Source of the DNA: an uncultured Anaerolineales bacterium
GTDB lineage: Bacteria > Chloroflexota > Anaerolineae > Anaerolineales > UBA11858
Length of the DNA stretch: 64,000 nt
Assembly: GCA_964458115.1 (NCBI GenBank)
Contig: CAYWIC010000002.1
Location: forward strand, 5,936 to 69,935
Direction: 5' to 3'
Translations under genes and position numbers: made by a program
In this document: positions 3-13,525 of the stretch, piece after piece
Layout: each line of letters begins with the position of its first letter
How positions within the stretch are numbered: position 1 is the stretch's first letter
Notes under the pieces: generated by a model
Databases searched by the model: none
What the model saw: the letters and a program-made list of their open reading frames with translations, nothing else
What the model was told of the DNA's origin: nothing

Positions 3-770
3 AAGCTTAGCCAGGGCACGGTCAAACTGGCCAGTGTTGGCCGCATTACCTGTGTAACTGCTGAACCAACGAAGCATAAACACTCCCTGAACTATCGTCA
101 TGTATTGGATGGTTTATGGTATCCCGGCACATCGACGAAATATGCTTCCTCTGCATTCCGCTGGCTACGCGATGCCGTTTGGGACGCCGTAACTTTTGGT
201 GAAATGGATGAAAACGCAGCTCAAGTATCCCCAGGGTGCGATGGTCTAATTTTTCATCCTCATCTGCAAGGGGAGTGGGTTCCATATTGGGATAACCGCT
301 TGCGAGGGGATTTTCTTGGACTGACAGTGAGACATAACAGAGCGCATCTGACTCGGGCGGTGATGGAAGGTGTCGCTTTTGCTTTGCGTGCTGGTGTGGA
401 TTTTGCCAGCCGCATGGGGCTGAGTTTCAATATTATGTCCCTGATAGGACGCGGCAGTATCAGTAATATCTGGGCTCAGATAATTGCAGATACGCTCAAC
501 CGCACAATTCGAGTACCAGCTGAAAGAGATGCAGCGTATGGTACGGCTTTGATTACTGGAATGGGTGTCAATCTGTTCCCATCGGACCCCGCCGAATTAT
601 CAAAATTAATTATCTATGAAGAAGAAAGACAGCCACTACCCGCATCGGTAGCAATCTACAATGAACTTTACGAGATCTACCAGGATGCTGATTATCTCTT
701 GAAGACGATATCCCATCGCCTGAATGATTTTGATGAAAAGTACTCAACGGTTGGGGATTCCGCGAGGTAA
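3..770 (+). CDS. FGGY-family carbohydrate kinase (xylulokinase-like), 5'-truncated by window edge
   Basis: Frame is open from base 3 (KLSQGTVKLASVGRITC...). FGGY C-terminal motifs PHLQGEWVPYWD, RAVMEGVAFALR, AAYGTALITG. Confidence 0.85.
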   Translation, partial: KLSQGTVKLASVGRITCVTAEPTKHKHSLNYRHVLDGLWYPGTSTKYASSAFRWLRDAVWDAVTFGEMDENAAQVSPGCDGLIFHPHLQGEWVPYWDNRLRGDFLGLTVRHNRAHLTRAVMEGVAFALRAGVDFASRMGLSFNIMSLIGRGSISNIWAQIIADTLNRTIRVPAERDAAYGTALITGMGVNLFPSDPAELSKLIIYEEERQPLPASVAIYNELYEIYQDADYLLKTISHRLNDFDEKYSTVGDSAR

Positions 771-817: not shown

Positions 818-2275
818 ATGTACGTGAAAATTAGTGAGATGCAATTTCGGATGATACTCCATGAATTGATTGCCATCGTTGGGAAGGAGCATGTCATCAC
901 ACCAGAAGCCGACCGCACTGTCTACGGCGTGGATGTTTATTGGGCGCCGCGGTTGATGATTGACCGGGGAAAATTGCCTCCCCTCGGGGATGTGATCGTC
1001 CTCCCTGCAAATACTGAGCAAGTTTCGGCGATTGTAAAGCTGGCCAATATCTATCGTATTCCAGTGATTCCCTGGGGGGGCGGTTCTGGTTCTCAGGGCG
1101 GCATTATGCCCATGTATGGCGGCATCATGTTGGATTTAAAGCGCCTCAATCTGATTACTGAGATTAATGATATTGCTGGTACGGTCACAGCTCAGGCGGG
1201 CATAAATGGATATGAGTTAGAGAATGCCCTCAACGCAGCCGGTTGGACATTGCCGCACTACCCGGCTTCGGTTCATTCTGCAACCCTGGGTGGGTATCTG
1301 GCATGCCGGGGATCTGGTACCGTCTCGACGAAATACGGCAAGGCCGAGGATATGGTGCTTTCGATGCAAGTGGTTTTGCCCACTGGTGAAATTATTCAGA
1401 CCTTGCCGGTTCCCAATCATGCTGCTGGTCCTGGCATCTTGCAGTTGTTTGTAGGAGCCGAGGGCAGTTATGGCATCATCACCGAAGTTACCATGCGCCT
1501 GGAGCGCCTGCCAGAAGTGCGCCGCTTCCGCTCATTCTTGTTCCCAGATATGGGTGCCGGACTGGATGCCGGGCGCAATATCATGCTAGACCGCTTACAG
1601 CCCCTGGTGATCCGCCTATATGACGAGCGCGCCACCATCAAGACCGTGAAGCGTGTGCTCGGACAGGATGTCGATTCAGGTTCGTATATGGTGATTGGTT
1701 TCGACGGCTTTGAAGACATCGTTGATGCCCAGGAACGCCATGCTTTCGAGATCATTGATCGCTATGGTGCAGAAGATCTGGGGGCCGAGGCCGGCCGAAA
1801 TTGGTGGGAACACCGCTACGATTTCTACTTCCCACCCAAGGTTTTAGATTTCCCCTGGATGTTCGGCACCCTGGACACTGTGGCCACCTTTGACAAGTTG
1901 GAACCACTCTACTGGGCCAAGAAGGAAGCCCTGGAAGAGGCCTATAAAGAATGGGATCTGTTTTACTACGCTCATTTTTCGCATTGGTATTTGTGGGGAG
2001 TGATGGCCTACGACCGCTTCATTATCGAGAAGCCTCCCGAAAATCCCGACGAAGCGCTGGCCTTACATGATGAAGTCTGGAACCTGGCCGTAAAGGTCAA
2101 CCTGGAATATGGTGGTGTGATCAACGAGCATCATGGCGTGGGATTGAAACTGTCCCGCCATGTACGGGAACAGTTTGGTGCTTCATTCCAGGTTCTCGAA
2201 GGATTGAAAAATACCCTCGATCCCTACCATTTGATGAATCCTGGCAAGATGGGTTTTGGGCCTCCGCGATTATAA
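818..2275 (+). CDS. FAD-binding oxidoreductase (GlcD / alkyl-DHAP-synthase-like, FAD-linked oxidase family)
   Basis: PWGGGSGSQGG FAD loop, HYPASVHSATLGGYLA, GAEGSYGIITE, C-terminal NEHHGVG and MNPGK. Confidence 0.88.
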   Translation: MYVKISEMQFRMILHELIAIVGKEHVITPEADRTVYGVDVYWAPRLMIDRGKLPPLGDVIVLPANTEQVSAIVKLANIYRIPVIPWGGGSGSQGGIMPMYGGIMLDLKRLNLITEINDIAGTVTAQAGINGYELENALNAAGWTLPHYPASVHSATLGGYLACRGSGTVSTKYGKAEDMVLSMQVVLPTGEIIQTLPVPNHAAGPGILQLFVGAEGSYGIITEVTMRLERLPEVRRFRSFLFPDMGAGLDAGRNIMLDRLQPLVIRLYDERATIKTVKRVLGQDVDSGSYMVIGFDGFEDIVDAQERHAFEIIDRYGAEDLGAEAGRNWWEHRYDFYFPPKVLDFPWMFGTLDTVATFDKLEPLYWAKKEALEEAYKEWDLFYYAHFSHWYLWGVMAYDRFIIEKPPENPDEALALHDEVWNLAVKVNLEYGGVINEHHGVGLKLSRHVREQFGASFQVLEGLKNTLDPYHLMNPGKMGFGPPRL

Positions 2276-2285
2276 CGGTGTAATC

Positions 2286-3389
2286 ATGAGTCGATTATTA
2301 GAACATCAACAAGCCTTATATGAACTACGCTTCTCACCGATGTGCAGACCGGCCGCCGAAGTAGCCAACTTCACGCAGCTAGAGAGCCACTCTGTGCGCT
2401 CCCGCACGATGATCATGTGGCGAGTTTGCGCCGGCCACCTGACATGGGGGCCGCGTGAAGTGGAGCTTCTTTATGAATCCACATTGGACAGCATCAGCGA
2501 AGCCTTCGATGTATTCCATTACCCCGTTAGCCAGTATATGCTGGACGCCCGGGCGGATGTTTGGGAAGCGGGGTTGGCCCCACAGAATGTAAAGGATGTC
2601 GTAAGCAGCGCATCCGAGAAATCGGTTGACGCGCTACCCAAAGCCAGCGCAGATGTGCTGCTGCTGGGCGGTGAGATCGCCCAAGCGGAAGGGGCTGACT
2701 TTTCGGAGACGCTCACTAATAAATTGCCTGATATTCCTCTTTGGGTTACCCCAAGCGGCGTGCTGCCTTATGTCCTGGGCGCTCAAGATATCGCCAGGGC
2801 GCAGGCCGAGGTGATCGTAAATGGCATCCAGGAATCGGGTGCCAAAACGGTCATCGCCGATGGACCTGAAACCGCCTGGGGATTGACGAAAGTATTTCCC
2901 ACGCTAGGTGTTGACCTGCCCAATGGCGTGCAAGTGCAATTGCTATCGGACTATCTTGAGAAGAATGTGGAGGTCAAGAGTAAAGGTACTGTCAAAACGA
3001 TGGTGCATGACAGCCGTCCGGCTTGTCTGATTGCCGATGAACTGCCCAATCACCTGGCCGTGATGCCTGGCTATCTTGAAGATGAAGCTGTGTTTGGCAA
3101 GGGTCTGGTTTTCGACGCTCCCCGGCAGATCGTTGATGCCCTGGGTGGGGAAAGGGTGTATGGTGCCTGGACGCGTTGTCTGGCGAAAACTTGCGGCGCG
3201 GATGACGGGTTATGGCTGACTTATCCTGACCTGGCCAAGGGCTTAGCCTGGCAGCGGTTGGCTTATGCCAAAGAGCTGGGGGCCGAGAAGATCGTCGCCG
3301 ATTCGCCATTGTGCGCGGCATATTTGTCTGCTCAGGCTGGTGAAGATGATCCCGCAGTTTATTGGCTGCCAGAATTGGTTTTGGCATAG
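2286..3389 (+). CDS. GlcF/HdrD-like (Fe-S)-binding/CCG-domain protein with most Cys ligands substituted
   Basis: Degenerate ferredoxin motifs (LRFSPMCRPAAE; YESTLDSISEAFD) and CCG remnants (HDSRPAC, KTCGADDG, ADSPLC). Directly follows the FAD oxidase. Confidence 0.7.
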   Translation: MSRLLEHQQALYELRFSPMCRPAAEVANFTQLESHSVRSRTMIMWRVCAGHLTWGPREVELLYESTLDSISEAFDVFHYPVSQYMLDARADVWEAGLAPQNVKDVVSSASEKSVDALPKASADVLLLGGEIAQAEGADFSETLTNKLPDIPLWVTPSGVLPYVLGAQDIARAQAEVIVNGIQESGAKTVIADGPETAWGLTKVFPTLGVDLPNGVQVQLLSDYLEKNVEVKSKGTVKTMVHDSRPACLIADELPNHLAVMPGYLEDEAVFGKGLVFDAPRQIVDALGGERVYGAWTRCLAKTCGADDGLWLTYPDLAKGLAWQRLAYAKELGAEKIVADSPLCAAYLSAQAGEDDPAVYWLPELVLA

Positions 3390-3504
3390 GAGTCTTTTGT
3401 GAAGGCTTTGAGAATTCTTGGTCCCGGACAAATGGCCTGGCAAGATTGGCCCGAACCTCAATAAATTCAGAGCATCTAAGCAGTCTTGACTATTGGAGAA
3501 GTAG

Positions 3505-4416
3505 ATGGCTGAAACAAGAAGCAAAAAGATAACCGATCGCAGTGGCCGGTCGTATACGTTGACATATGAAGAGATCAAGCATTGGGAGTACCAGAGCGAG
3601 TCTACCCGCCGGGTTTTACTAGACACTTTGCATCGCTACGGGCGCGGTCACTCTGGCCCTTCATTATCGTTGATAGAAATATTAACCACGCTGTACCATA
3701 AGGAATTACGTTTAGATCCATTGTTCCCTAAGTGGGAAGATCGTGATCGCTTCATCCTCTCGAAGGGGCACGGCGCTTTGGGGTTTTATTGTTCCCTGGC
3801 GCAGCGCGGACTGATTCCCATGGAAGAGTTGGCCACCTTTGAATCCCTGGGCAGCCGCTTGCAAGGGCATGTCGATTCGATCTGGCTGCCCTGGGTGGAA
3901 CTGACTACCGGCTCGCTGGGGCAGGGTTTGTCGGTTGGCTTGGGTGTAGCCCTGGGGGCTAAGAAGCTGGAGAAAGATATTCGAGCTTATGTCGTCATCG
4001 GCGATGGCGAATCCGAGGAAGGTAATATCTGGGAAGCTGCCATGGCGGCCGCGAAATTCGAGGCCGATAATTTATGCTGCATTGTGGATTTCAACGCTCT
4101 TCAGGGTGGTGTCACCTTGGAAGTGATGCCCAGTTTGGAGCCATTTGCCGATAAATGGAAGGCCTTTGGCTGGCACGTCATCGACATCCCCGGCCATGAT
4201 ATCGAGGCCCTGTTGTGCGCATATCATGAAGCCCGTCAGTCAAAAGGCAAACCGACGGTGATTATCGCCCGTACCGTCAAGGGCAAGGGGGTCTCTTATA
4301 TGGAAAACAAAGTCGAATGGCATGGCGGCACGGTTTCCAAGCCATTATATGAGCAGGCCATCGCAGAGATCGATAGTCGCCTGAGTGCATTGCGCGATTA
4401 CGCGGTCTGGAATTGA
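3505..4416 (+). CDS. Transketolase, N-terminal (ThDP-binding) subunit
   Basis: RFILSKGH, LQGH, GSLGQG, ThDP motif GDGE...N. Confidence 0.93.
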   Translation: MAETRSKKITDRSGRSYTLTYEEIKHWEYQSESTRRVLLDTLHRYGRGHSGPSLSLIEILTTLYHKELRLDPLFPKWEDRDRFILSKGHGALGFYCSLAQRGLIPMEELATFESLGSRLQGHVDSIWLPWVELTTGSLGQGLSVGLGVALGAKKLEKDIRAYVVIGDGESEEGNIWEAAMAAAKFEADNLCCIVDFNALQGGVTLEVMPSLEPFADKWKAFGWHVIDIPGHDIEALLCAYHEARQSKGKPTVIIARTVKGKGVSYMENKVEWHGGTVSKPLYEQAIAEIDSRLSALRDYAVWN

Positions 4417-4427
4417 GGAGACTGGTA

Positions 4428-5384
4428 GTGGATTGGGAATATTCATCCTTACGGGAAGCATTGGGTAAGACGTTGCTAGAGTTGGGCGGCGAAGTGGACA
4501 AAATGTTGGTGATCAACGCCGACCTGCGAAACTCTGTCAAGACGGTCTATTTCATGAACGCCTACCCGGAGCGCACCATAGAAGTGGGCATTGCCGAGCA
4601 GAATATGGTCGGCGTGGCAACGGGGCTTTCGATGATGGGGTTCATCCCCTTTTGCGTGACCTTCGCCCGTTTCGCCAGCAAACGTGCTGCCGACCAGATT
4701 TCGATGTGCGTGGATTATTGTCAGAATAATGTGCGTATCATCGGGGCTTATGCCGGCATCTTCACTGGCATGCAGGGCGTCAGCCAGCAGATGATCGATG
4801 ATACCGCCGCAATGCGGGCAATGCCCAATATGACCGTCATCGATACGGCCGATGCCATCGAGACGCGCGCCGTGCTGCGCTATGCCGTTGAGCACGTCGG
4901 CCCGCTCTATATCCGTGTTGGCCGGGACGAATGGCCTGTGGTCTTTGATGAGAACTATAAATTCGAGTTGGGAAAGGGGCAGTGGGTGCGCGAGGGAGGC
5001 GATGTTGTACTGATGAACTCCGGCGTGCTCTTACCTTATGCCGTTGAAGCTGCAGAAAATCTAAAGGCGGAGGGCATCGACGCAGGCGTGATAAATATGC
5101 CGACTGTCAAACCCATCGATGTAGAAATGATCAATGAAGTTTGCCGGAATGTGGGCGCTATCGTGACCCTTGAAAATCACAACGTCCAGGGCGGCTTTGG
5201 CAGTGCCGTGGCTGAAGTCGCGGCCCAAAATTACCCCACACCGATGGAATATATTGGTATTCGGAATGAATACAGCGAGTCAGCTCCAAATGATGAGTTG
5301 GCAGAAAAACATAAATTGACTGCACCGCATGTTGCTGAAGCAGCCAGGAAAGTACTTCAAAGGAAAATTGGGTTTCCAAGGTAG
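4428..5384 (+). CDS. Transketolase, C-terminal (pyrimidine-binding + C-terminal) subunit
   Basis: EVGIAEQNMVG, AMRAMPNMTV, GPLYIR, TVKPID, ENHNVQGGFG. GTG start follows GAGGAG RBS at 4415-4420. Confidence 0.92.
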   Translation: MDWEYSSLREALGKTLLELGGEVDKMLVINADLRNSVKTVYFMNAYPERTIEVGIAEQNMVGVATGLSMMGFIPFCVTFARFASKRAADQISMCVDYCQNNVRIIGAYAGIFTGMQGVSQQMIDDTAAMRAMPNMTVIDTADAIETRAVLRYAVEHVGPLYIRVGRDEWPVVFDENYKFELGKGQWVREGGDVVLMNSGVLLPYAVEAAENLKAEGIDAGVINMPTVKPIDVEMINEVCRNVGAIVTLENHNVQGGFGSAVAEVAAQNYPTPMEYIGIRNEYSESAPNDELAEKHKLTAPHVAEAARKVLQRKIGFPR

Positions 5385-8992: not shown

Positions 8993-9733
8993 ATGACGAT
9001 CATCGACACCCACTGCCATTTTGGGACATCTATCCTTTCTGATTTGAATATTACCAGAGAAGATTTGGTGAATTCCATGAACGAATTTGGGGTTCATCTT
9101 GCTTTGGTGATGCCTCATGCTGTTAGTGATGATCCTGTTTTCGAACATGACCGAGTTGCCGACCTGTGTAGCCAATATCCAAAACGCTTTCGCGGCATTG
9201 TCAATCTGACTCCCTTGTGGGGTGAAGACAAGTATTATGTAGAAGCTCAACGTTGCGTAAAAGAACTGGGCTTTGTGGCGATAAAGCTAAACCCCATGCA
9301 GCACCTGGCATCGCCAATCATGAAGAATGCCCACAAGGTTTTTTCAACTGCGTCCGCCTTGGGTGTGCCGGTGATCGTTCATACCGGCCTGGGGGTACCC
9401 TGGGCTTTGCCGAGTTTGTGCATCCCGCCAGCAAGGCAGTTTTCAGACACCCCAATTATTCTTGCTCACGCAGGTTACGGAGTCTACACAGCGGAGGCCT
9501 ATGTGGCTGCCAGCGTCTGTGAGAATATTTATCTGGAGCCCTCCTGGTGTACAGTAGAAGACCTGAAAATGTTGACCAACAAAGTGGGCGCGCAGCGCAT
9601 CATGTTGGGCTCCGATGTGCCTGCTAATCTGCCAGTGGAACTGGCAAAATATCGCGCCGCTAATCTATCTGATACCGAACTAGAAAATTGTTTCTGGAAG
9701 ACCGCAAACCGGATGTTTCAACTCAATTGGTAG
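8993..9733 (+). CDS. Amidohydrolase_2 family TIM-barrel metallohydrolase (possible lactonase/decarboxylase)
   Basis: IDTHCH (HxH), VHTG, LAHAG, GSDVP. Confidence 0.85.
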   Translation: MTIIDTHCHFGTSILSDLNITREDLVNSMNEFGVHLALVMPHAVSDDPVFEHDRVADLCSQYPKRFRGIVNLTPLWGEDKYYVEAQRCVKELGFVAIKLNPMQHLASPIMKNAHKVFSTASALGVPVIVHTGLGVPWALPSLCIPPARQFSDTPIILAHAGYGVYTAEAYVAASVCENIYLEPSWCTVEDLKMLTNKVGAQRIMLGSDVPANLPVELAKYRAANLSDTELENCFWKTANRMFQLNW

Positions 9734-9783: not shown

Positions 9784-10536
9784 ATGATCGATCTATCTGG
9801 AAAAGTGGCTTTAGTTACGGGTTCCTCGCGTGGCGTGGGATCTGGCATTGCCCCGGTGTTAGCAGCTTGTGGCGCAGATATTGCCATCAATTATCGCTCT
9901 GCCGGAGAAAAGGCGGAGCAGGTTGCTATACAAGCCAGGGAAGCCGGAGTGCGTGCAGTTACCATTCAAGCGGATGTAACCGAACCGACTGAGGTAGAGC
10001 GGCTGGTTCAAGAGGTTGAGGGCAAACTCGGTCCCGTCGATATCCTGGTCAATAATGCCGGCTTCAATTGGCTGAAACCAATCTTGGAGATCTCTGTTGA
10101 GGATTGGGATCGCACATTGAATTTGAATTTGCGTTCCCATTTCTTATCATCGAAGGCAGTCTTGCCGAGGATGATGGAGCGCGGCTGGGGGCGCATCATA
10201 GGGATATCATCCATCTCTGGGCAGCGTGGGGGCCTCTCTGGCGATGTGGACTATTCCGCTGCCAAAGCGGGTATCCTGGGATTAACACGCTGCCTGGCAC
10301 GACATGTGGCCGAGCATGGCATCACGGTAAATGCTGTGGCTTTGGGATATATCTGGACCGATGGTTTGGTTGCTGTGCCCGAGGAGAAGCGTAATCGCCT
10401 CACCAGCCAGATTCCGCTTGGCAGATTTGGTTCTGTTGATGAATGTGGTGAGGTTGTGGCTTTCTTGGCCTCGGATGCCGCGGCTTATATCACAGGAGAA
10501 GTCATGACTGTTAATGGTGGCGTGCACATTGCTTGA
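9784..10536 (+). CDS. SDR family NAD(P)-dependent oxidoreductase (FabG-like)
   Basis: TGSSRGVG, NNAG, YSAAK, ITGEVMTVNGG. Confidence 0.92.
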   Translation: MIDLSGKVALVTGSSRGVGSGIAPVLAACGADIAINYRSAGEKAEQVAIQAREAGVRAVTIQADVTEPTEVERLVQEVEGKLGPVDILVNNAGFNWLKPILEISVEDWDRTLNLNLRSHFLSSKAVLPRMMERGWGRIIGISSISGQRGGLSGDVDYSAAKAGILGLTRCLARHVAEHGITVNAVALGYIWTDGLVAVPEEKRNRLTSQIPLGRFGSVDECGEVVAFLASDAAAYITGEVMTVNGGVHIA

Positions 10537-10582
10537 GCAAAAAAACTCGAAGGAACAACTCAATCTCAAGGAGAATAGCCCG

Positions 10583-10631
10583 AAAAATAGGTGTGCAGGG
10601 GGCGCAGCGCACCCCATGCACACCTATTTTT
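10583..10631. repeat. Long intergenic palindrome (family A, copy 1)
   Basis: AAAAATAGGTGTGCA...TGCACACCTATTTTT arms around GGGGGCGCAGCGCACCCC. Confidence 0.9.
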
Positions 10632-10676
10632 TGGAAATTTTCTCTCGAAGTAATATACTTTTCTATGAAAGCATAT

Positions 10677-11702
10677 ATGACCAAAACTAAAAAACTCAGA
10701 GTCGGCTTTATCGGCTGCGGCAGACATGCTACCAAGGTGCTCTACCCCAGCCTGCGTTATTCTCATATCAACCTGGTCGCCGTGTGCGATCTGGATGAGC
10801 GTCTGGCGAAACGCAACGCCCAATGGTTTGGGGCGGAAAACTATTACACAGACTACCAGCGCATGCTCAGTGAATCTCAGTTAGATGCAGTGATCATCGT
10901 CACGGGGCCTGCCAGTCATGCCAGTTTGGCAGGAGAAGTTTTGTCTCGGGATATCCCAGTATTCATAGAGAAACCCCCGGCATATACTTTGGCAGAAGCT
11001 GAGGATCTTTTGGAACTGAGTATGAGGAAGGGAATTCCCGTCACGGTCGGGATGATGAAGCGCTGGGCTCCGGCATACCAGCGAGTGAAAGCAATTATCG
11101 CAGAAAATGAATTCGGGGCAATTAGCCACATTCAGGCCACGTTCAGGGTGGGCAATAAGCTCTGCTCAGGGTATGCGCTGCTGTTAGATGCCGGTATCCA
11201 CATCCTCGATCTGGTTGACTTTCTTGGTGGCGGTATTGATTCAATCCAATGTGAAAAATACCAGGGAGAAATAGGCATTGCCTATGCCCTCACATTGCGA
11301 TTTTCAGGTGGCGCGATTGGAAATGTTCATATATCCGACCAAGGTTCCTGGTCTTATGCCAATGAGTCTGTTGAAATAACCGGCTGTGGTGCTTTTGTGC
11401 GCGCTGAGAACCTGACTTCCGTGAGCTATACTAGAAAAGACGGCACAATATCCGTTTATGATCTAGGTTTCTCGATCCCACAAAATCAAAATAATAGCCT
11501 GTTCATCCAAGGATACGCACACCAATTTCAGGCCTGGTCACAGGCTTTACTCAGTGGCAACGAGCCTGAATCGACCCTGGAGGATAGTTGTCGTGCGATT
11601 GGCCTGATTAAGACCCTTGAACCTGATCAAGAATATTCGAAGAAGCCACAGCATTTCCCACATTGGCAGGCTGAAGAAGCCTGGCTAAATGTTGAAGATT
11701 GA
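10677..11702 (+). CDS. Gfo/Idh/MocA family oxidoreductase
   Basis: RVGFIGCG Rossmann fold, EKP, DAGIHILD. The longer ORF start (10533) runs through the palindrome and is unlikely. Confidence 0.9.
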   Translation: MTKTKKLRVGFIGCGRHATKVLYPSLRYSHINLVAVCDLDERLAKRNAQWFGAENYYTDYQRMLSESQLDAVIIVTGPASHASLAGEVLSRDIPVFIEKPPAYTLAEAEDLLELSMRKGIPVTVGMMKRWAPAYQRVKAIIAENEFGAISHIQATFRVGNKLCSGYALLLDAGIHILDLVDFLGGGIDSIQCEKYQGEIGIAYALTLRFSGGAIGNVHISDQGSWSYANESVEITGCGAFVRAENLTSVSYTRKDGTISVYDLGFSIPQNQNNSLFIQGYAHQFQAWSQALLSGNEPESTLEDSCRAIGLIKTLEPDQEYSKKPQHFPHWQAEEAWLNVED

Positions 11703-11713
11703 AAGGGTGATAA

Positions 11714-12694
11714 ATGCCTGATACACATGCCAGTGTCGTAGTCAGCGGAGTGATTGTTAGCCCCGAGATCAGTCTGCACTGGGAAAAACTCAAGCAGCAA
11801 ACAGATTTGACCATCCTGGAAGAGAATACTTCTCAGGCTCTGCATCAGGCGTTGCGAGATGCTGAAGTTTTAATCATCCGCCCAATCATGCCGGTATCCA
11901 GGAAGATGATCGAAGCGGCTGATAACTTGCGGGGGATCGTTGTCTGGGGAGTGGGATATAACACTATCGATGTTCCAGCGGCAACAGAAAGCGGTCTGCC
12001 GGTGGTCACGCTGCCTGTCTTTCTGGCATCAATAGCCGAGGCGGTAGTTTATTACCTCTTTTCGATTACCAAAAAGTATCAGCACCTCAATAATTTGGCC
12101 CGAACGGGACAGCGGCCTACATTGCATGATCGCAGCGATGCGCTCGAAGGCAAAGTGTTGGGCTGCATTGGCCTGGGGCGTATCGGCAGCCGGGTAGCTC
12201 GCATTGCTCAGGCTCTTGATATGCAAGTTATTGTATTTGACCCCTTTCTAGACTCAGCACAGGTCGCTGGACGTGATCTGTCTCTAGTTTCACTCGATGA
12301 GCTGCTGAAACGATCCCATTTTGTCTCATTGCATGCACCCCTGACTGCTGAAAACCAGCATCTGATCGACGCCGTTGCCCTGGAAAAAATGCGGTCGGAT
12401 GCCTACCTCATCAATCTGGCACGGGGGGGCTTGGTGGACGAAGCTGCGTTATTCCGCGCCCTGACCGATGGCCAGATTGCCGGCGCTGCCCTGGACACTT
12501 TTGAAATTGAGCCAGTTTCTCCTGATAATCCACTCTTAACCCTGGATAATGTCTGGGCGACGCCGCATTATCTGGGAGCAACCTGGGAAGGCCTTGCTCA
12601 ATTGGCTTCAGCAGCCCAAGATGTCACTCTAAAGCTGCTAAAGGGTCAATATCCAGGATATAACATCGTCAACCCAGAAGTGTATCAAGAATAA
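11714..12694 (+). CDS. D-isomer-specific 2-hydroxyacid dehydrogenase
   Basis: GCIGLGRIG, HAPLT, NLARG, DTFEIEP, TPHY (catalytic R/E/H present). Confidence 0.92.
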   Translation: MPDTHASVVVSGVIVSPEISLHWEKLKQQTDLTILEENTSQALHQALRDAEVLIIRPIMPVSRKMIEAADNLRGIVVWGVGYNTIDVPAATESGLPVVTLPVFLASIAEAVVYYLFSITKKYQHLNNLARTGQRPTLHDRSDALEGKVLGCIGLGRIGSRVARIAQALDMQVIVFDPFLDSAQVAGRDLSLVSLDELLKRSHFVSLHAPLTAENQHLIDAVALEKMRSDAYLINLARGGLVDEAALFRALTDGQIAGAALDTFEIEPVSPDNPLLTLDNVWATPHYLGATWEGLAQLASAAQDVTLKLLKGQYPGYNIVNPEVYQE

Positions 12695-12790: not shown

Positions 12791-13525
12791 ATGATTATCG
12801 ACTGCGAACTTTACTTACTCGATTTTCCAGTTGCCGGACGGATTTACACAATTCCTGACTTTGAGAATATGTTGGATGAAGCCAATATTGATAAAGCTGT
12901 GCTTATGCCTCCCATTACGCTAAAACCTGATAATCAATGGATGGTTGAGCAAATCAAAGACAACCCACGCTTTATCCCCTGCGCCATGCATAATCCTCAC
13001 TTTGGCGCTGAAGCCGTCTCCGATCTTGAAATTGGAGTGCGTGAGCGGGGTATCAAAGGCTTGAAACTTAACCCGACCAAACATGGCTTTCATGCCGCCT
13101 CTAAGCTTGTCTATCCGCTAATGGAAAAATGCGCTGAGTTAGATATTCCTGTTTCGATTCATTCTGAAGGAGGTTACGCTCACCCCCTGGTTATTGCTGC
13201 GTTAGCTAGGGCATTTCCGGATGTACCAATCATCATGGACCACATGGGGTACCGTTACTGGGTTGCTGATGCTATCGAAGCGGCGCGGCAAGCGCACAAT
13301 ATCTATCTGGCAACAACCGCGGTCATGGAACCCCATTTCATCAAGCTGGCTATTGACGATATTGGCGTGGACCGGATCGTTTTCGGCTCAAATGGCCCCA
13401 TCACAGTTCCAAGAATACAAGTAGACGTGATCAAATTCCTGGATCTTTCTCCAGAAGATGAAAACAAAATCATGGGTGGGACGCTAGAGAAATTATATAA
13501 AATTGATCAACAAGAATCATATTAA
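12791..13525 (+). CDS. Amidohydrolase_2 family protein with degenerate metal site
   Basis: Paralog-like fold motifs (IHSEG, MDHMG, RIVFGSN) but IDCELY replaces IDxHxH. Confidence 0.78.
   Translation: MIIDCELYLLDFPVAGRIYTIPDFENMLDEANIDKAVLMPPITLKPDNQWMVEQIKDNPRFIPCAMHNPHFGAEAVSDLEIGVRERGIKGLKLNPTKHGFHAASKLVYPLMEKCAELDIPVSIHSEGGYAHPLVIAALARAFPDVPIIMDHMGYRYWVADAIEAARQAHNIYLATTAVMEPHFIKLAIDDIGVDRIVFGSNGPITVPRIQVDVIKFLDLSPEDENKIMGGTLEKLYKIDQQESY

Follow-up and report, generated by a model that had tools for sequence, protein, structure and literature searches.

The specificity residues of transketolases are textbook-conserved and are prime targets of enzyme engineering. In the numbering of the Escherichia coli enzyme, Asp469 reads the C2 hydroxyl group of the acceptor or the C4 hydroxyl group of the donor, and His461 is the phosphate-site histidine of the canonical enzymes. 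Enzymes in which these positions differ have been described: AptAB acts as apulose-4-phosphate transketolase in the catabolism of D-apiose (Carter et al. 2018, cited in PMC13001218), SqwGH of Clostridium sp. MSTE9 and Faecalicatena is a 6-deoxy-6-sulfofructose transketolase (PMC11659671), pQR2809 is a natural D469L split transketolase that is active (PMC13663882), and the R358I/H461S/R520Q variant of E. coli TktA acts on 5-keto-D-gluconate (PMC12016104). In this study, we describe a split transketolase that is encoded on 64,000 nucleotides of DNA from an uncultured Anaerolineales bacterium (GenBank assembly GCA_964458115.1, contig CAYWIC010000002.1, positions 5,936 to 69,935; hereafter, the window). 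A Tyr/Gln/Gln pocket is fixed, the isoleucine contacting the thiazolium ring is removed, and His100 is relaxed across at least 120 protein clusters, which come mostly from uncultured Chloroflexota. The enzyme very probably cuts an unusual sugar and belongs to a gene cluster for the breakdown of a sugar, polyol, or sugar acid.

Active-site residues of the two subunits

The N- and C-terminal subunits are encoded by two co-directional, adjacent open reading frames, with PF00456 in the first and PF02779 and PF02780 in the second. The features discussed in this section are listed below; equivalent residues follow E. coli numbering.

3505-4416, forward strand: N-terminal transketolase subunit (thiamine diphosphate [ThDP]-binding pyrophosphate domain), 303 residues; PF00456, E = 3.4e-48
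3841-3843, forward strand: N-subunit Glu113, at the position of Arg91
3868-3870, forward strand: N-subunit His122, equivalent to His100
4099-4110, forward strand: N-subunit LQGG, replacing the canonical LQIDG (N-subunit alignments)
4413-5384, forward strand: C-terminal transketolase subunit (pyrimidine and C domains); PF02779 and PF02780, match to 6YAJ with E = 8e-82
4452-4454, forward strand: C-subunit Arg14, equivalent to Arg358 (gap-free alignment to 6YAJ and human TKT)
4533-4535, forward strand: C-subunit Ser41, equivalent to Ser385 (gap-free alignment to 6YAJ and human TKT)
4596-4598, forward strand: C-subunit Glu62, equivalent to the catalytic Glu411 (by alignment)
4749-4751, forward strand: C-subunit Tyr113, at the position of His461
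4767-4790, forward strand: rewritten C-subunit motif GMQGVSQQ (alignment to 6YAJ, human TKT, and E. coli TktA)
4773-4775, forward strand: Gln121 within GMQGVSQQ, at the position of Asp469
4785-4787, forward strand: Gln125 within GMQGVSQQ, at the position of His473
4923-4925, forward strand: C-subunit Arg171, equivalent to Arg520, the third residue of the phosphate triad (by alignment)

The ATG of the N-subunit has a GGAGA sequence 6 nucleotides upstream. The reading frame of the C-subunit, for which the listed start is TTG, overlaps the stop codon of the N-subunit (TGA, 4414-4416). An in-frame GTG at 4428 has a GGAGA box (4417-4421) 6 nucleotides upstream, and a start there gives 318 residues, as in the database copy; because of this placement and this length, GTG 4428 rather than TTG is likely the true start.

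C-subunit residues 113-130 in the translation of 4413-5384 (window 4749-4802) read YAGIFTGMQGVSQQMIDD. In a phmmer search against the PDB, the whole C-subunit is covered by the match to the split transketolase of Carboxydothermus hydrogenoformans (ChTK; C chain of PDB 6YAJ; E = 8e-82), and the motif stretch AGIFTGMQGVSQQMIDD aligns gap-free with AGLTVGEDGASHQAIED of ChTK and with human CGVSIGEDGPSQMALED; GMQGVSQQ lines up without gaps with GEDGASHQ of 6YAJ and GEDGPTHQ of E. coli. Alignment by MAFFT with E. coli TktA, for which the sequence of strain SE15 served as the reference, gives H461Y, E468M, D469Q, and H473Q, with Glu411, Phe434, Phe437, and Arg520 unchanged. The original prediction, which placed a transketolase motif rewritten to GMQGVSQQ at 4767-4800, is borne out, the motif itself occupying 4767-4790. 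Its assignment of Gln to the positions of Asp469 and His473 is correct, and the alignment check that it suggested finds neither residue displaced in the comparisons with 6YAJ, human TKT, and TktA. The H461Y change was missed in that first reading and stands beside the other two.

A search of 5.8 billion proteins returned at least 120 clusters at 68-100% identity, and the counts out of 120 given in this study refer to the matches listed. The members of this family are mostly unnamed metagenomic proteins or proteins of an "Anaerolineae bacterium" or "Chloroflexi bacterium." They share the pattern AYAGIFTGxQG[VA][ST]QQ, with Tyr461 in 120/120, Gln469 in 118/120, and Gln473 in 120/120 clusters, and position 468 is free to vary (Met, Arg, Ala, Cys, or Gln). 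A library in which sequences were grouped at 50% identity gives about 45% identity or less for the nearest relatives outside the family. In the tree built with FastTree, the family forms one monophyletic clade (support 1.0), which has a long stem (0.55) and is nested in a wider group of split transketolase paralogues that already has Tyr461 and lacks Asp469. The 146 nearest representatives comprise 69 with the canonical His/Asp/His triad (His461 and Asp469 in 69/69) and 77 non-canonical sequences; Tyr461 is found in 31, Gln473 in 3, and Gln469 in none of the 146. Roughly half of the nearest "transketolase family protein" annotations are not canonical transketolases. Rewriting of the pocket is thus common among split transketolases, with the Tyr/Gln/Gln combination specific to this clade, and the changed motif is a family signature and a product of neither chance nor decay.

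The four substitutions at the motif and His461 differ in weight. Glu468 is variable even in canonical split transketolases (Glu in 30/69, Pro in 21/69), and E468M therefore carries no information. H473Q alone is a natural variant of human TKT and of other Anaerolineales split transketolases (GKDGPTQMG), in which GSHGGITLGKDGPTQMG is the mammalian-type Gln473 motif and His461 and Asp469 are retained. The split transketolases at loci L104, L106, L109, L111, L113, and L117, from other Anaerolineales, carry GSHGGITLG[KQE]DGP[TS]QMG, with His473 replaced by Gln, Gln474 replaced by Met, and both His461 and Asp469 kept; the Gln473 variant is therefore not confined to animals.

For the N-subunit, 110 canonical split-transketolase sequences were compared with the 120 family clusters. 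Arg91, which is otherwise invariant (110/110), is Glu in 120/120 family clusters, and LQIDG is changed to LQ-GG in 120/120, so that Ile189 and the following Asp190 are gone. The corresponding Ile182N of ChTK contacts the thiazolium ring (PMC7661550). Val for Pro101, Trp for Gly108, and Arg for Ser24 are the usual state in the family. His100, a ligand of the donor C1 hydroxyl group (PMC7661550, PMC13663882), is His in 72 clusters, as in the window, and Ser in 48.

Equivalents of His26, His66, His100, Asp155, Asn185, and His261 are all present in the N-subunit of the window; His26, His66, His261, Asp155, and Asn185 are invariant in the family, as is the catalytic Glu411, so that the ThDP and metal ligands (Asp155, Asn185, and His66) are complete. 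The donor-histidine set His26/His100/His261/His473 is incomplete, since His100 is often Ser and His473 is always Gln. In the C-subunit, Glu411, Phe437, Asp381, Arg358, Arg520, and Ser385 are kept across the family; the phosphate site thus retains Arg358, Ser385, and Arg520 without exception, but His461 is Tyr in all clusters. In the two subunits, selection therefore maintains the cofactor machinery and the distal phosphate triad, and the readers of the C1 hydroxyl, the C4 hydroxyl, and the proximal anion site have been replaced. The remodeling is wider than the motif, extending to H461Y in the C-subunit and to R91E, the loss of Ile189 and Asp190, and the variable His100 in the N-subunit.

Gene cluster and distribution

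The transketolase genes are part of a cluster with the following other members in the window.

3-770, forward strand: 3' part of a XylB-like FGGY kinase gene (full gene, L003:5182-6705; TIGR01312, 340 bits, cut-off 380)
818-2275, forward strand: flavoenzyme resembling GlcD and alkyl-dihydroxyacetone-phosphate (DHAP) synthase (domain and PDB matches)
2256-3389, forward strand: GlcF-like partner of the flavoenzyme, lacking Cys (domain matches)
3399-3464, forward strand: remnant of a Zn-dependent alcohol dehydrogenase (Zn-ADH), 21 codons (VKALRILGPGQMAWQDWPEPQ*); the gene is intact in L009
5555-8984, forward strand: sugar-type ATP-binding cassette (ABC) transporter, in the order permease, binding protein, permease (domain matches)
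8993-9733, forward strand: first amidohydrolase_2 protein (domain matches)
9784-10536, forward strand: short-chain dehydrogenase/reductase (SDR; domain matches)
10533-11702, forward strand: Gfo/Idh/MocA protein (domain matches)
11714-12694, forward strand: D-2-hydroxyacid dehydrogenase (domain matches)
12791-13525, forward strand: second amidohydrolase_2 protein (domain matches)

Upstream of the window lie the genes of an IclR regulator and a 113-residue cupin, followed by the 5' part of the FGGY kinase gene. The order is IclR, cupin, FGGY kinase, flavoenzyme, GlcF-like protein, N-subunit, C-subunit, ABC transporter set, amidohydrolase_2, SDR, Gfo/Idh/MocA, D-2-hydroxyacid dehydrogenase, and amidohydrolase_2. 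A canonical full-length transketolase (674-residue frame, 472 bits on PF00456) is encoded on another contig of the same genome, and a housekeeping role for the split pair was rejected on this ground.

The SDR scores 226 bits on gluconate 5-dehydrogenase, and L-idonate 5-dehydrogenase is the best NCBIfam match of the Zn-ADH beside the transketolase (223 and 201 bits), all below the cut-offs. The Gfo/Idh/MocA neighbors match inositol 2-dehydrogenase best, far below the cut-off (IolG, 108 versus 355 bits). An ApnO-type oxidoisomerase was considered for this neighbor and rejected, because the fold of ApnO is like that of ketol-acid reductoisomerase and not Gfo/Idh/MocA. In E. coli, the best match of the FGGY kinase is a locus that is presumably xylB, at 186 bits, compared with 75 bits for AplK. 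PDB and NCBIfam searches with the binding protein, amidohydrolases, SDR, and Gfo/Idh/MocA protein gave sub-threshold generic matches only, which do not fix the substrate.

Besides the window, family loci were found at L009, L010, L119, L120, and G673. A scan of genome contigs gave two family loci, and a scan of metagenomes that was dominated by the generic pattern EVGIAEQN gave four. L009, a relative with 91% identity, has the same gene order with an intact Zn-ADH gene (334 residues) between the GlcF-like gene and the N-subunit gene, directly upstream of the latter; in the window genome, a deletion of about 0.9 kb removed this gene and left its first 21 codons. The order Zn-ADH, N-subunit, C-subunit is also present in L010 (JAEUKZ010000212.1), in which both subunits are 73% identical to those of the window, the ABC transporter is on the other strand, and the contig is binned as an alphaproteobacterial metagenome-assembled genome; this copy either left Chloroflexota by horizontal transfer or was binned wrongly. 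In L119, L120, and G673, the arrangement is SDR, Gfo/Idh/MocA, N-subunit, C-subunit. The amidohydrolase, SDR, Gfo/Idh/MocA, and 2-hydroxyacid dehydrogenase genes of the window also accompany the transketolase in L009, L120, and G673, and the gene set, including cupin, FGGY kinase, and flavoenzyme, is conserved but rearranged in L009, L119, L120, and G673.

G673 belongs to a different lineage of the class and has the whole set over two contigs in another order: IclR, alpha/beta-hydrolase, SDR, Gfo/Idh/MocA, N-subunit, C-subunit, M29-like protein, ABC transporter, and D-2-hydroxyacid dehydrogenase, followed by amidohydrolase 2, SDR, Zn-ADH, amidohydrolase 1, flavin adenine dinucleotide (FAD) oxidoreductase, cupin, FGGY kinase, GlcF-like protein, and flavoenzyme. 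The identities are 48% for its FGGY kinase and 68% for its flavoenzyme. Both contig ends, L200 (G673:C119) 1-447 and L206 (G673:C120) 2-790, fall inside one D-2-hydroxyacid dehydrogenase gene; the two are therefore joinable, and the join brings the transketolase block back together with the block of cupin, kinase, and flavoenzyme.

The M29-like protein is a conserved protein of 344-345 residues with a faint likeness to M29 aminopeptidases, encoded directly downstream of the C-subunit (L120, 11006-12040; L200, 4124-5158); it belongs to the Ser100 subclade and is absent from the window. Complete genes of a 2-oxoacid/acetoin-type dehydrogenase (E1 alpha, E1 beta, and E2) lie close to the family member in L120 (14327-17594), and in L123 (4316-9093) a set that also includes E3 lies close to a split transketolase with Tyr461 that is the nearest one outside the family (48% identity); a functional link of these genes to the transketolases is possible. 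On the opposite strand after the cluster of G673, L206 10659-15674 encodes a 1109-residue beta-galactosidase-type glycosidase of glycoside hydrolase family 2 and a sulfatase, which hints that the substrate may derive from a sulfated marine glycan.

The distribution of the family is patchy. It was found in one of 400 sampled Anaerolineales genomes, that of the window itself, and in one more (G673) among 400 Anaerolineae; it was not found in nine other sampled genomes of the genus of the window.

Proposed function and alternative explanations

The sequences show which residues have changed, how widely these changes are conserved, that the enzyme is a paralogue, and which genes surround it; what it catalyzes, in which direction, and on which substrate is our inference. 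The split pair is probably, if not with great assurance, a catalytically competent α2β2 transketolase, a dedicated catabolic paralogue whose rebuilt pocket acts on an unusual ketose. The ABC transporter would take up the substrate, and the SDR, Gfo/Idh/MocA protein, and IdnD-like Zn-ADH would convert it to the ketose. By ordinary transketolase ping-pong, the ketose would give its two-carbon ketol to a normal sugar-phosphate acceptor, for example, glyceraldehyde-3-phosphate, which would feed the pentose-phosphate pathway and release an unusual aldehyde; the 2-hydroxyacid dehydrogenase and the flavoenzyme would deal with the latter. One of the reaction partners would be a standard sugar phosphate, because the phosphate triad is invariant. 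A non-standard substrate (2-deoxy, branched, acid, or non-phosphorylated) had been predicted from the motif, and it gains indirect support from the conservation, the second canonical transketolase, the dedicated cluster, and the precedents of AptB, SqwH, and pQR2809; on the other hand, the restriction to the motif was too narrow, and the change of His to Gln is uninformative alone.

As the donor, we tentatively favor an (ω-1)-keto-aldonate, that is, a ketose with a carboxylate tail such as 5-keto-gluconate, because the pocket Asp is lost, a longer Tyr stands at the anion site, and an Arg is often present near His26. The idonate/gluconate-5-dehydrogenase-like neighbors (below cut-off), the lactonase-type hydrolases, and the IclR regulator point the same way, amidohydrolase_2 proteins and IclR regulators being typical of lactone and sugar-acid routes. 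The cleavage of 5-keto-D-gluconate by a transketolase also has precedent: engineered strains and in vitro work have both demonstrated its conversion to tartaric semialdehyde (PMC12016104, PMC13527115). The enzyme could then be a natural acid-sugar transketolase, a suggestion we make with the same reserve, for which a lactonase and idonate/gluconate-5-dehydrogenase-like enzymes would make a 5-keto-hexonate or 4-keto-pentonate; the top two carbons of this compound would pass to glyceraldehyde-3-phosphate, and an aldehyde-acid would be freed.

Several points weigh against this proposal. The AlphaFold2 monomer model of the C-subunit confirms the fold (template modeling [TM] score against 6YAJ, 0.87-0.94), but its active-site loop (residues 114-129) has a predicted local distance difference test score below 50 and gives no side-chain geometry. 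The gene context comes from six loci, which is a small sample, and the assignments of the neighbors all lie under the curated cut-offs. The loss of the Zn-ADH from the operon in the window would mean either that this enzyme is not essential or that the pathway is decaying here. In addition, D469Q need not mean that an anionic group is nearby, since Gln can still form hydrogen bonds with a hydroxyl group, and a phosphorylated donor would be just as compatible with the XylB-like kinase and with the phosphate triad, which is retained.

Such a phosphorylated unusual ketose, as in AptAB, is a possible substrate and about as likely as the keto-aldonate. The cupin or the dehydrogenases would make the ketose, the FGGY kinase would phosphorylate it, and the transketolase would cleave the product; candidates are a short four-carbon donor such as erythrulose-4-phosphate, which would have its phosphate near position 469, or a donor whose stereochemistry at C3 and C4 is not D-threo. 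Invariant Arg358, Ser385, and Arg520 are consistent with this substrate, as are the cupin-FGGY adjacency kept in the window, L009, and G673, the kinase score on XylB (340 bits, under the cut-off of 380), the best solved relative of the flavoenzyme, which acts on a DHAP derivative, and the precedent of AptAB, in which an FGGY kinase accompanies a split transketolase with altered positions 461 and 469. However, it is the SDR and Gfo/Idh/MocA genes that adjoin the transketolase in L119, L120, and G673, where the kinase gene is kilobases off or is not seen in the available sequence; the kinase is not AplK-like (75 bits) and may simply phosphorylate xylulose, and the lactonase-type hydrolases and 2-hydroxyacid dehydrogenases are left unexplained.

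It is improbable that the enzyme performs a ThDP chemistry other than glycolaldehyde transfer, in which the rebuilt C1 pocket (variable His100, H473Q, and loss of Ile189) would take a donor substituted or deoxygenated at C1; examples would be the retro-acyloin opening of an inosose from the IolG-like dehydrogenase or acetyl/hydroxyethyl transfer from a 1-deoxy-ketose. We know of no precedent for such chemistry in the transketolase family. The two changed ligands of the C1 hydroxyl, with Ser at position 100 in 48/120 and Gln always at 473 (PMC7661550, PMC13663882), would suit it, but Ser and Gln are still able to bind a hydroxyl group; and although the thiazolium-contact Ile is lost in 120/120 and 2-oxoacid dehydrogenase E1/E2 genes occur close to the transketolase of L120 and to the nearest outgroup of L123, the family, like true transketolases, keeps His26, His66, His261, and the phosphate triad without exception. 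The best match of the Gfo/Idh/MocA neighbors to inositol 2-dehydrogenase is countered by its low score (108 versus 355 bits) and by the absence of known iol genes.

Least likely of all is an ordinary transketolase or a redundant, decaying copy in which drift is tolerated, still active on xylulose 5-phosphate and ribose 5-phosphate or else non-catalytic: H473Q is functional in human TKT, Gln for Asp is a conservative polar change, the cofactor ligands are intact, the operon in the window lost one gene, and pentitol or pentose operons sometimes include a transketolase paralogue, but Tyr/Gln/Gln is fixed in 118-120 of the 120 clusters, in contrast to the freely varying position 468 beside it, Gln469 occurs in 0/146 nearest representatives, no member retains the Arg and the Ile that are invariant elsewhere, the stem branch is long, the genome has a separate canonical enzyme, and the family is not found in nine other sampled genomes of the genus.

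If the substrate of the proposed catabolic transketolase is identified, the family would stand for a new route by which a sugar, polyol, or sugar acid from the sea is catabolized and would offer a ready scaffold for carboligation with acidic or otherwise non-standard aldehydes.

Comparison with known transketolases

The synthase that makes 1-deoxy-D-xylulose 5-phosphate (DXP synthase) is a single polypeptide in which His100 is replaced by Phe or Tyr for the pyruvate donor. This identity was rejected for the window enzyme, which has two genes, His at position 100 (Ser in part of the family), and a TIGR00204 score of 177 bits against a cut-off of 466. Mammalian transketolases, including the human enzyme (PDB 3MOS and 4KXU), and the "GKDGPTQMG" split transketolases of Anaerolineales share Gln at position 473 with the window enzyme and differ from it in keeping His461, Asp469, and a canonical N-domain.

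ChTK has the same two-gene architecture as the window enzyme, with about 45-47% identity (E = 8e-82; TM score, 0.87-0.94). The contacts to ThDP, calcium, and the pyrimidine are the same, and equivalents of Leu31C, Ile53C, Glu55C, and Phe80C are kept. ChTK, however, has the canonical His/Asp/His triad (THAG...GEDGASHQ), Arg at position 91, and Ile182N, whereas the window enzyme has Tyr/Gln/Gln, Glu, and no Ile; the former is a pentose-phosphate enzyme, and the latter is a paralogue inside a catabolic cluster.

The original prediction proposed comparisons with AptAB and SqwGH, which were carried out by alignment for the former and through its published signature for the latter; the window enzyme is an orthologue of neither. 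The AptA and AptB references were E. coli SE15 ECSF_RS02710/02715, which were located through PMC13001218. AptAB is likewise a specialized split transketolase with a rewritten acceptor-site motif, and its genes belong to a cluster for sugar catabolism that also encodes an ABC transporter, SDRs, and an FGGY kinase. The subunits of the window are only 41% (A) and 35% (B) identical to it. AptB reads NAGASYGPLASTHH, with Asn461, Pro468, Leu469, Ala470, and a retained His473, and has lost Arg358 and Arg520; the corresponding residues of the window enzyme are Tyr, Met, Gln, Gly, and Gln, and both Arg residues are kept. The kinase of the window is XylB-like and not AplK-like. Membership in AptAB was rejected on the direct alignment with AptA and AptB and on the kinase comparison. 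AptB shows that specialized split transketolases rewrite the motif, although by a different solution.

SqwGH is a split transketolase that uses an unphosphorylated anionic ketose as the donor and glyceraldehyde-3-phosphate as the acceptor, and SqwH, like the C-subunit of the window, keeps both anion-site Arg residues (PMC11659671). Its signature is a change of RSFHR to RAFDR (S385A and H461D; PMC11659671), whereas the window enzyme has R-S-F-Y-R (Ser41 and Tyr113) and is changed at Asp469 and His473 instead; identity with SqwGH was rejected on the published signature alone. No sulfoquinovose isomerase, sulfoacetaldehyde reductase, or sulfoquinovosidase was recognized in the cluster.

pQR2809 and the TktA variant show that substrate scope depends on position 469 and on the anion site and that keto-aldonates can be transketolase donors; other residues are substituted in them, and no physiological pathway of this kind is known for either. 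The natural specialized split transketolases AptB, SqwH, and pQR2809 are altered at the same positions, and the family described here is an uncharacterized variant of specialized split transketolase paralogues.

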